Positions 37,529 to 38,576 of a stretch of DNA of 64,000 nucleotides are shown here, in pieces. The DNA is from Mycoavidus cysteinexigens (lineage in GTDB: Bacteria; Pseudomonadota; Gammaproteobacteria; Burkholderiales; Burkholderiaceae): NCBI GenBank assembly GCA_031963045.1, contig JASSUK010000042.1:1030-65029 (forward strand), given 5' to 3'. The translations under genes and the position numbers were made by a program. How positions within the stretch are numbered: position 1 is the first letter of the stretch; the number at the start of each line of letters is the position of its first letter. The notes under the pieces were generated by a model. That model searched no databases, was not told where the DNA came from, and was given only the letters and a program-made list of their open reading frames with translations.

Positions 37529-37783
37529 TTATCTAGTGAGGGATTGTATATTCTGTCCACCTTTATCGACTAGCTGATGTTCACTTTGTTCAATAGCGAG
37601 TTCAACGGCTGCTTTCGAGGCTTCTTCCATCATGACCTTAGCTTCGTTTACTGCACCATCGAACATTCCACCACCACCACTACTATTACCACTACCACTA
37701 TTACTTCCTCCATTATTTTTATTATCAGAAGCATGAAATTTATTAAAATATTGCCTTTCTGGAAGGCTAGTGCTGTCACCCAT
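37529..37783 (-). CDS. small Gly/Ser-rich protein, paralog 1 (84 aa); putative T3SS pilus subunit or harpin-like secreted protein
   Basis: MGDSTSLPERQYFNKFHASDNKNNGGSNSGSGNSSGGGG-MFDGAVNEAKVMMEEASKAAVELAIEQSEHQLVDKGGQNIQSLTR. It sits in the hrpE-equivalent position of the Hrp2-like cluster. No Cys. Confidence 0.6.
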   Translation of the reverse strand: MGDSTSLPERQYFNKFHASDNKNNGGSNSGSGNSSGGGGMFDGAVNEAKVMMEEASKAAVELAIEQSEHQLVDKGGQNIQSLTR

Positions 37784-37939
37784 GGTTTTATCCAGTTTTT
37801 TTAAAAAACTTCGCTTTGGATTTGCATTTTGTGATAGGTTTTTCGCCGCTACATGCTAAAGAATATTATACAATTTTTGATTAGGAACCAAGAAGACCGA
37901 TATGTATAGTCTTCTTGGTTATGAAAATTTACTCTCATT

Positions 37940-38182
37940 TTATCGAGTGAGGGATTGCGTGTTTTCCCCACCTTTATTTGCTATCTGAAATTTACTTTGT
38001 GCAATGGCAAGTTCAACCGCTGCTTTTGACGCCGCTTCCATCATGGCCTTAGCTTCGTTTACTGCACCATCGAACATTCCACTACCACCACCACCACCAC
38101 TACTTCCTCCATTATCTTTATTATCAGAAGCATGAAATTTATTAAAATACGCTCTGTCTTGAAGGCTAGTGCCGTCACTCAT
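37940..38182 (-). CDS. small Gly-rich protein, paralog 2 (80 aa); putative pilus subunit or harpin-like
   Basis: MSDGTSLQDRAYFNKFHASDNKDNGGSSGGGGGSG-MFDGAVNEAKAMMEAASKAAVELAIAQSKFQIANKGGENTQSLTR. Conserved upstream TGGACAAAATCATG. Confidence 0.6.
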   Translation of the reverse strand: MSDGTSLQDRAYFNKFHASDNKDNGGSSGGGGGSGMFDGAVNEAKAMMEAASKAAVELAIAQSKFQIANKGGENTQSLTR

Positions 38183-38339
38183 GATTTTGTCCAGTTTTTT
38201 TTAAAAAACTTCGTTTTGTATTTGAATTTTGTGATAGGTTTTTCGCCGCTACATGCTAAAGAATATTATGCAATTTTTGGTTAGGAACCAAGAAGACCGA
38301 TATGTATAGTCTTCTTGGTTATGAAAATTTACTCTCATT

Positions 38340-38576
38340 TTATCGAGTGAGGGATTGCGTGTTTTCCCCACCTTTATTTGCTATCTGAAATTTACTTTGT
38401 GCAATGGCAAGTTCAACCGCTGCTTTTGACGCCGCTTCCATCATGGCCTTAGCTTCGTTTACTGCACCATCGAACATTCCACTACCACTACTACTGCCTC
38501 CTCCACTATTACCACCACCACCACCACCAGGTTTAGGCTTGCCAGGTTCTACAATTTCTGTTGATACTAGAGCCAT
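38340..38576 (-). CDS. small Gly-rich protein, paralog 3 (78 aa) with an unrelated N-terminus; putative pilus subunit or harpin-like
   Basis: MALVSTEIVEPGKPKPGGGGGGNSGGGSSSGSG followed by a C-terminal half identical to paralog 2. Start set at 38576 because TGGATAAAATCATG matches the upstream context of paralogs 1 and 2; the track start at 38639 is probably too long. Confidence 0.6.
   Translation of the reverse strand: MALVSTEIVEPGKPKPGGGGGGNSGGGSSSGSGMFDGAVNEAKAMMEAASKAAVELAIAQSKFQIANKGGENTQSLTR

Follow-up and report, generated by a model that had tools for sequence, protein, structure and literature searches.

The filament subunits of Hrp2-type type III secretion systems (T3SS) are hard to recognise, and the pilin of each lineage looks like an orphan. 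Hrp pilins are described as proteins of 6-11 kDa and 66-113 amino acids (aa), almost entirely α-helical except at the N terminus and with little similarity across genera (PMC3973906). In HrpE of Xanthomonas, the equivalent of SctF, the N-terminal half (residues 1-52) is variable and contains the secretion signal; the C-terminal half (residues 53-93) is conserved and is the most helical part (PMC6026121). The slot that follows hrpD6, or hrpX in Ralstonia, holds HrpE in Xanthomonas, a 58-aa protein (MSALVGGALG...) in Burkholderia stagnalis and a 76-aa protein in Mycetohabitans, and the same positional argument has been made for pilins elsewhere, together with the point that identifying such proteins is inherently difficult (PMC5483457). 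Here we describe a tandem array of three small genes, par1, par2 and par3, that lies at the outer end of a Hrp2-type T3SS cluster in a stretch of 64,000 nucleotides (nt) of contig JASSUK010000042.1, assigned to Mycoavidus cysteinexigens (hereafter the window).

In the Ralstonia solanacearum OE1-1 megaplasmid the slot after hrpX is filled by an 82-aa gene (L082:6370-6618), labelled 'hypothetical protein' in the record, which we take to be hrpY from its position and from its MAGVPKP... N terminus. The protein encoded by the gene after hrpY (L082:6808-7035) is 63% identical to HrpY over its C-terminal 59 aa (E = 5e-24), and its N terminus is unrelated. This gene is annotated as a 'serine kinase/phosphatase', which is probably wrong; it is in fact an HrpY paralog. 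The Ralstonia pair and the array have much in common: both sit in Hrp2-family clusters and consist of tandem paralogs on one strand with C-terminal halves that are alike (63% against 78-100% in the array) and N termini that are unrelated, and HrpY and the array proteins are ~75-84 aa long and free of Cys. The initial annotation had presented multiple pilin cassettes with exchanged exposed regions as an unusual variation; the Ralstonia pair is a precedent for tandem pilin-like paralogs with different N termini, so that the array does not represent a wholly new category of phenomenon. The array differs in copy number (three, two of them with identical C termini, against HrpY and one paralog), in having a poly-Gly linker at the place of the Thr/Ser-rich spacer of HrpY, and in its setting, since hrpY lies between hrpX (the hrpD6 equivalent) and hpaB whereas the array stands behind an extra hrpB1 paralog. 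What the window adds is a newly recognised small-protein family of pilin-like architecture coupled to a duplicated hrpB1 in a Hrp2 T3SS, triplicated, with shuffled N termini and an unusual poly-Gly tether. Judged from their sequences, par1-3 are a lineage-restricted family of ~8-kDa proteins tied to this type of T3SS.

The three genes share the ribosome-binding site (RBS) context TGGATAAAATCATG, and their products follow a common layout of an N terminus of 16-24 aa, a Gly/Ser(/Asn) linker of 11-17 aa (15, 11 and 17 aa in par1, par2 and par3, respectively) and a 45-aa C-terminal domain (MFDGAVNEAK...QSLTR). Their alignment contains 42 invariant columns. The proteins have masses of 7.6-8.8 kDa, Gly contents of 14-19% and isoelectric points (pI) of 4.95-6.16, and Cys and Trp are both absent. 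The initial annotation had described three Cys-free open reading frames (ORFs) of 78-84 aa with this tripartite layout, and they are indeed present, all on the minus strand. Its account of their relationships is equally accurate: the C-terminal halves of par2 and par3 are identical at the nucleotide level (0/138 mismatches over 45 codons and the stop), their N termini are unrelated, and par1 combines a par2-type N terminus (87.5% nt identity) with a diverged C terminus (78% aa and 83% nt identity). For par1, AlphaFold predicts a helix at residues 9-21, an unstructured linker and a helix at residues 40-83, at low confidence (mean predicted local distance difference test score (pLDDT) 58.6).

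par1-3 are real genes, because the C-terminal domain evolves with a dN/dS of ~0.2 and an orthologue exists in a second organism. Between par1 and par2 this domain shows a dS of 0.57 and a dN of 0.117 (ω ~0.2), a mark of purifying selection in this frame. The orthologue was reached through the neighbouring hrpB1 paralog (HrpB1′), whose search against a collection of 5.8 billion proteins returned a sole relative, 51% identical, on a 1041-bp contig derived from the SRA (sample SRR28201144; L084). A 78-aa ORF with the RBS GGAGAAAAT begins 45 nt after this HrpB1′ orthologue and is built as MAANPKLSNLTPVGDP-SGGGGVNVDGGGSGGGN-PFAGSVQDAQALIAQAAEASMQISMSMSKANIKKESGTDSKTLTQ; its alignment with the array is ungapped and extends to the final residue (BLASTP E = 2e-6, 37% identity, 68% positives). 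The signal resides in the C-terminal domain (z = 8.5-10.5 against shuffles, 0/5000), the N terminus being without similarity (p = 0.5-0.7), although its length and the total length of the protein match those of par3. A hydrophobic a/d heptad stripe occupies 10/10 positions of the C-terminal helix in par2 and par3 and 7/10 in the L084 orthologue, which supports the predicted long helix. The proposed pattern of conserved C and variable N termini holds both within the array (par2/par3) and between organisms, and the pairing of an hrpB1 paralog followed by a family member is kept in both. As far as this short contig allows copy number to be judged, that organism has one copy of the family; a strong hairpin comes after it, and beyond the hairpin lies an ORF of another kind.

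Searches for further relatives found none. A homology search with par2 in the 5.8-billion-protein collection returned only the three window proteins. When 1.84 billion representatives were searched exhaustively with a profile, the only matches besides proteins of the window itself were two spurious repeat proteins. Looking up the exact par2 sequence among contigs matched no record. Locus scans of GTDB genomes and JGI metagenomes gave no relatives, nor did tblastn against plasmids. No small ORF and no array protein matched Pfam or NCBIfam at E <= 0.1, and a sequence profile search of the PDB retrieved engineered Gly-linker constructs only. Such orphan status is typical of the Hrp pilin class.

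The array operon begins with HrpB1′. Along its entire length this protein has 34% identity to the cluster's canonical HrpB1, with which it shares a C-terminal Y(T/A)(I/V)RM. Because the two window copies resemble one another more closely than either resembles the additional HrpB1-family gene in B. stagnalis, the hrpB1 duplication is lineage-specific. A hrpII/PIP-type box (TTCG-N16-TTCG) precedes HrpB1′ and is followed ~31 nt downstream by the hexamer TATCCT, which resembles a -10 element of the form YANNNT. Six hrp boxes occur in the window where 1.86 are expected, and 1/100 shuffles attained that number. Of these, 3/6 stand in promoter position for T3SS operons: the one before HrpB1′ and two in the divergent hrcU/hrpB1 promoter region, as expected. 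A further box overlaps the start codon of hrpD5. Between HrpB1′ and par3 lies orf56 (MANVPANVNPNTVNNAAPPSASAPKNPEEQAFRNLADQAKEMLDKTIKNIIKPPIA, MANVPANVNPN...). The start of its helix, FRNLADQAKEMLD, weakly resembles FDGAVNEAKAMME of the array (p = 0.01 against par2) and its N terminus is weakly like MAGVPKPTTTN of HrpY (p = 0.018); against the L084 orthologue it gives no similarity signal. We consider that orf56 is possibly a degenerate fourth member of the family or a separate small T3SS protein. L084 has no orf56 equivalent between HrpB1′ and its family member, and synteny with the window at the DNA level stops ~30 nt beyond the HrpB1′ stop, so that the positional orthologue could be either orf56 or par3.

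The initial annotation had placed these genes in a Hrp2-family T3SS, and this setting is borne out by recognition of the HrpB1, B2, B4, B7, HpaP and HrpD5 families. The minus strand of this intact cluster carries hrcU, hrcV, hpaP, hrcQ, hrcR, hrcS, an unassigned 315-aa gene, hrpD5 (sctD) and an 81-aa gene like hrpD6, and its plus strand carries hrpB1, hrpB2, hrcJ, hrpB4, hrcL, hrcN, hrpB7, hrcT and hrcC. The nearest SctV proteins are those of Burkholderia alba (64%), a Janthinobacterium metagenome-assembled genome (61%) and Xanthomonas (58%), and the species-level genome set therefore includes no sequenced organism that is closely related. The array occupies the outer end of the cluster, on the same strand as its minus-strand genes, beside the convergent housekeeping gene nadE. 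The hrpD6-like gene matches hrpX of Ralstonia and hrpD6 of Xanthomonas and Burkholderia in size and position, and the order of transcription after it is orf42 with its terminator hairpin, a second hairpin, a convergent 51-aa ORF, the hrp box, HrpB1′, orf56, par3, par2 and par1. The position of the Hrp pilin had been claimed for the array; that is only approximately right, because it lies inside the Hrp2 cluster yet ~1.7 kb beyond the slot itself, behind terminators, an hrp-box promoter, the hrpB1 paralog and orf56. No gene of the SctF/needle family was recognised among the cluster ORFs scanned with Pfam and NCBIfam, and some small ORF must therefore supply the needle function.

The anatomy of the array records its recent history. 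A block of ~293 nt, 98% identical between its two copies at an offset of 400 nt, covers the end of the linker, the C-terminal domain, a hairpin with a 13-bp stem and the intergenic region, and Tandem Repeats Finder assigns the array a period of 400. Mismatches are unevenly spread along the repeat (5/85 in the intergenic part, 37796-37880, and 0/208 in 37881-38088; Fisher p = 0.002), and the 208-nt exact repeat is far beyond chance expectation. Of the 'exact 400-bp tandem duplication' that had been reported, the 400-bp period stands and the exactness does not, being confined to these 208 nt. One edge of the duplicated block falls within the Gly linker, which in par2 is encoded by an in-frame (CCA)n/(GGT)n triplet repeat and in par1 and par3 by similar runs, likely substrates for recombination and slippage. 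The par1 and par2/3 lineages differ by ~15% at the nucleotide level. We infer that the three copies derive from one ancestral gene by duplication and that the shared part of par2 and par3 would have been made identical more recently, by unequal crossover or gene conversion bounded on one side within the linker's GGN codons. A mosaic origin of par2 relative to par1 could not be shown, as the divergence of the N- and C-terminal parts (87.5% and 83.3% nt identity) does not differ significantly (Fisher p = 0.54).

The hairpins that follow par2 and par3 have no trailing U-tract, and no such hairpin was found downstream of par1. Folding of the hairpin intergenic RNA gives z = -2.66, with 1/200 shuffles folding equally well, and the element probably stabilises the 3′ end of the mRNA or acts as a weak terminator. 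The suggestion of a switching or cassette mechanism found no sign in the sequence: neither invertible elements nor silent cassettes caught the eye in the stretches that were read, and all three copies are complete genes in the same RBS context. The expected outcome would therefore be co-expressed isoforms rather than phase switching.

How far do these proteins resemble known T3SS components? Their size falls within the Hrp pilin range, and size, composition and predicted structure, the last from a model of low confidence, are as described for Hrp pilins, in agreement with what had been proposed. HrpE is likewise small, mostly α-helical and free of Cys, with 12% Gly, its conserved half is the size of the ~45-aa array domain, and the Gly/Ser/Thr/Ala-rich composition of par1-3 recurs in HrpE and in a pilin-position protein of B. 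alba. HrpE differs in being single-copy, in the hrpD6-hpaB slot, and in lacking a discrete poly-Gly linker. HrpY and the array match in a short local motif (AKAMMEAASKAAVEL against AKLMEAGPKAAKDL), and the MAGVPKP... N terminus of HrpY is loosely like those of par3, the L084 orthologue and orf56 (MA..P; p ~0.02-0.03). A parallel also exists with the HrpB1-HrpB2 pair, in which an hrpB1-family gene is again followed by that of a small, presumably secreted helical protein, the array proteins being about half as long as HrpB2.

The B. alba protein (P0006; L002:18285-18545, minus strand) is an 86-aa pilin-position candidate encoded beside hpaB and a lytic transglycosylase, in the organism with the closest SctV. 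It aligns with the array collinearly and without gaps from the Gly-rich stretch through the helical C-terminal part (p ~0.001-0.006 under a linker-preserving null; ~0.002 for the C-domain alone; hhalign P = 0.0018). Like the array it is an orphan in the 5.8-billion-protein collection, and therefore no profile could be built from it; its sole annotation hint is a sub-threshold match to the NCBIfam HrpA pilin model (E = 0.13). It is single-copy and in convergent orientation, and its glycines are interspersed (GANIGGMLAGGANTAGG) where the array linker is homopolymeric. We regard the similarity as a lead that is too weak to argue for homology.

Our preferred reading, which we hold tentatively, is that par1-3 would be Hrp-pilin or needle-like subunits, secreted early as substrates and polymerising by means of the amphipathic helix at their C terminus. 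The hrp box before HrpB1′ would switch the operon on together with the T3SS. The short N terminus may carry the secretion signal and end up exposed, the Gly/Ser linker would act as a flexible tether, and the 45-aa helix with its unbroken hydrophobic a/d stripe could pack subunits together as they assemble into or onto an extracellular or axial filament. The TPR protein HrpB1′ would be a dedicated assembly or escort partner. Duplication followed by unequal crossover or conversion at the linker would yield isoforms with one polymerisation domain and different N-terminal peptides, from whose variety the bacterium may benefit. A bolder version of this scheme, which strikes us as a long shot, would have the array act as a modular display on the T3SS filament, with co-assembled isoforms each presenting a different N-terminal peptide on a poly-Gly tether, linker recombination and slippage generating new combinations and linker lengths, and HrpB1′ duplicated for the purpose.

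Several results weigh against subunits of a pilus or needle. The homology to HrpY, HrpE or SctF that the initial annotation had implied was sought by shuffle, profile and hhalign comparisons and was not found. Shuffle tests gave p = 0.08-0.17 against HrpY and p = 0.015-0.08 against HrpE, the latter lost under multiple testing, and hhalign assigned probabilities of 2-8% to both pairings. No similarity was seen to the needle proteins PrgI, MxiH or YscF, and comparisons with the HrpY paralog and with the Burkholderia and Mycetohabitans slot proteins were negative or marginal apart from the B. alba protein, which itself reaches only 15% hhalign probability and is uncharacterised. Proven pilins of different genera also fail such similarity tests against one another (see also PMC3973906). 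Kinship to HrpB2 or the inner rod was rejected (p = 0.19-0.84 against the window HrpB2), and a needle-chaperone fold of the YscG/PscG type was not supported for HrpB1′, for which Foldseek returned generic TPR matches only. The structural model has a mean pLDDT of 59, and a poly-Gly linker is undescribed among known Hrp pilins. No hrp box, even with up to one mismatch, lies inside the array, so that co-regulation needs read-through past the weak hairpin or promoters of the paralogs' own. Finally, the canonical hrpE/hrpY slot directly after the hrpD6-like gene belongs to orf42 (MGAAIGGAMAIFGSAQNS... / MGAAIGGAMAIFGSAQNSAMSFLEMNLNLIKKGFDAAVRLTQ), which stands outside the array family and is a competing pilin candidate. 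Its 42 aa are below the 63-113 aa reported for T3SS pilins, and its N terminus does not significantly match that of the B. stagnalis slot protein (p = 0.055).

Were orf42 or another small ORF the true pilin, par1-3 could instead be harpin or XopA/Hpa1-like secreted helpers that act outside the bacterium, on the translocon or the host surface, an explanation that we consider somewhat unlikely. Harpins and the array proteins share a Gly-rich, Cys-free, acidic to neutral character, genes in the cluster flank and presumed status as T3SS substrates, and the Gly content, lack of Cys and pI values of par1-3 fit the hallmarks (acidic, glycine-rich, cysteine-free) given for Hpa1 in PMC3571957. XopA is encoded in the hrp flanking region (PMC5684485), much as the array sits at the extreme edge of the cluster beside nadE. 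The extra HrpB1-family gene of B. stagnalis (L081:12928-13413) also adjoins a gene for a Gly-rich 183-aa hypothetical protein, which would suit such helpers, as would the occupation of the pilin slot by orf42. What speaks for pilins over harpins is that the array glycines are restricted to one 11-17-aa linker where those of harpins are spread along the protein, that a variable N and conserved C terminus with a single long heptad helix is a pilin signature, and that orf42 would undershoot the T3SS pilin size range. Size argues in the same direction: Hpa1 is ~13 kDa and other harpins are larger, so that the array proteins are about half the smallest, and to our knowledge smaller than any described harpin. 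The harpin likeness that had been noted is thus present, but as support for a pilin it fails, being a genuine alternative to one.

That par1-3 might be non-secreted accessory proteins of the T3SS, either cytoplasmic regulators of the HrpD6 type or co-chaperones or adaptors working with HrpB1′, seems to us decidedly unlikely. In favour of this reading, the genes keep their pairing with a TPR protein in both organisms, and clusters of this kind commonly encode small helical proteins, HrpD6 among them. HrpB1′ is a TPR protein by sequence, its AlphaFold model is all helical (pLDDT 73), and it matches the NCBIfam needle chaperone CdsG weakly (E = 0.007), far below the cut-off. Yet the best Foldseek matches of the model were MamA and consensus TPRs, all with E > 0.01 and none specific to YscG/PscG, and HrpB1 itself has been described as a periplasmic protein that belongs to the platform for pilus assembly, and not as a chaperone of the cytoplasm (PMC5684485). 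A hypervariable N terminus and triplication would also be unusual for a stoichiometric cytoplasmic adaptor, and the array has no family match in Pfam or NCBIfam.

Less probable still is that these small genes are unrelated to the T3SS and merely border it, encoding for example stress-induced or surface peptides under their own promoters. The lack of an hrp box directly upstream of par1-3, the TATAAT-like -10 element after each hairpin and the lack of homology to any T3SS family would be expected on that account. It is countered by the adjacency to an hrpB1 paralog, kept across ~50% protein divergence and with a 45-nt gap in L084, by the position of the array on the same strand directly downstream in an hrp-box operon, and by the distribution of the family, which is absent from 1.84 billion representatives and has so far been seen only beside a HrpB1′ gene. 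An assembly artefact, in which the tandem copies are a mis-assembled single gene, is very improbable: assembly from short reads might in principle be misled by an exact repeat of 208 nt, but the units differ (N termini unrelated or 87.5% identical, the par1 C terminus 83%, five intergenic mismatches, linker lengths), unique sequence flanks each repeat copy on both sides and the way in which synonymous differences are distributed indicates that the copies have truly diverged.

Table 1. Coordinates of the array, its operon and the other features of the window mentioned in the text
Feature	Position	Strand	Remarks
par1	37529-37783	-	84 aa; from the ORF list and its translation; par2-type N terminus (24 aa), Gly/Ser/Asn linker (15 aa), diverged C-terminal helix domain
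Triplet run in par1	37670-37704		similar to the par2 linker repeat
Duplicated or converted block	37796-38088		~293 nt; copy at 38196-38488, offset 400, 98% identical
13-bp-stem hairpin	37886-37920	-	perfect stem; ~20 nt past par2 stop; identical copy at 38286-38320 after par3
par2	37940-38182	-	80 aa; par1-type N terminus, with a C-terminal domain identical to par3's
(CCA)n/(GGT)n triplet repeat	38079-38100	.	in frame; encodes par2 poly-Gly linker; Tandem Repeats Finder
par3	38340-38576	-	78 aa counted from ATG at 38576; 16-aa N terminus MALVSTEIVEPGKPKP, 17-aa linker
Triplet run in par3	38511-38529		similar to the par2 linker repeat
orf56	38664-38834	-	56 aa; good RBS; between HrpB1′ gene and par3
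HrpB1′ (hrpB1 paralog)	38930-39475	-	181 aa; first gene of array operon; Pfam PF09613, E = 4e-24
hrpII/PIP-type box	39571-39594	-	TTCG-N16-TTCG; 96 nt upstream of HrpB1′ start
51-aa ORF	39964-40119	+	MGIGAIVGGLASKLLGIGGDSGGGGGGGNPANMLLGPMTTKGTSETQEKGS; convergent; good RBS; 33% Gly, G7 run
orf42	40318-40446	-	42 aa; strong AAGGAG RBS; terminator hairpin
hrpD6/hrpX-like gene	40591-40836	-	81 aa; follows HrpD5 (NCBIfam NF041525, E = 1e-79)
hrp box	41879-41902	-	overlaps hrpD5 start codon
315-aa ORF	41926-42873	-	Ser/Thr/Lys-rich; between hrcS and hrpD5
hrp box	49787-49810	-	divergent hrcU/hrpB1 promoter region
hrp box	49936-49959	+	divergent hrcU/hrpB1 promoter region
Canonical HrpB1	50038-50634	+
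Canonical HrpB2	50748-51269
WD40 + ARM-like ORF	807-6575	+	1922 aa
ARM-like ORF	10047-12725	+	892 aa
Group II intron match	13686-13762	-	Rfam, 57.5 bits
HTH-only ORF	14123-15535	-	470 aa; transposase-like
HEAT ORF	17171-18400	-	409 aa
WD40 + ARM-like ORF	22772-27775	+	1667 aa
ORFs without family	28000-34600		several, 100-600 aa
LRR ORF	60550-61638	-	362 aa

Among the remaining features of the window, the 51-aa ORF between HrpB1′ and orf42 has an N terminus that resembles that of orf42, from which it is separated by two hairpins. The 315-aa ORF occupies the hpaA/hrpV slot and has no match in Pfam or NCBIfam. Among the ORFs of the window to which Pfam was applied, none was recognised as an AraC-type HrpX/HrpB regulator, an hpaB (CesT) chaperone or an HrpF/PopF translocon gene. 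Beside the cluster, two giant proteins with WD40 and ARM-like repeats and further proteins with ARM-like, HEAT and leucine-rich repeats (LRR) are encoded; these eukaryote-like repeat proteins are candidate effectors, and their domain content suggests an intracellular or eukaryote-associated lifestyle. Several of the ORFs that lack a family could be effectors as well. A group II intron match lies beside a 470-aa ORF in which only a helix-turn-helix (HTH) was recognised, and together they are probably the remnant of a mobile element.

The locus provides a concrete candidate family for the T3SS of an uncultured, apparently eukaryote-associated bacterium, and the pairing with an hrpB1 duplicate could reveal binding partners of the TPR proteins of the HrpB1 family. 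It is also a clean natural example of recombination at a domain boundary, within a Gly linker, that produces isoforms with one assembly domain. Should par1-3 prove not to be filament subunits, the search for the true pilin would narrow to orf42 and orf56. If they are filament subunits, mixed filaments that bear N-terminal peptides of different sequence on tethers would vary the architecture of the injectisome in a new way, and modular display, if true, would give the injectisome surface a built-in means of variation or multiplexing for host range, adhesion or immune evasion.

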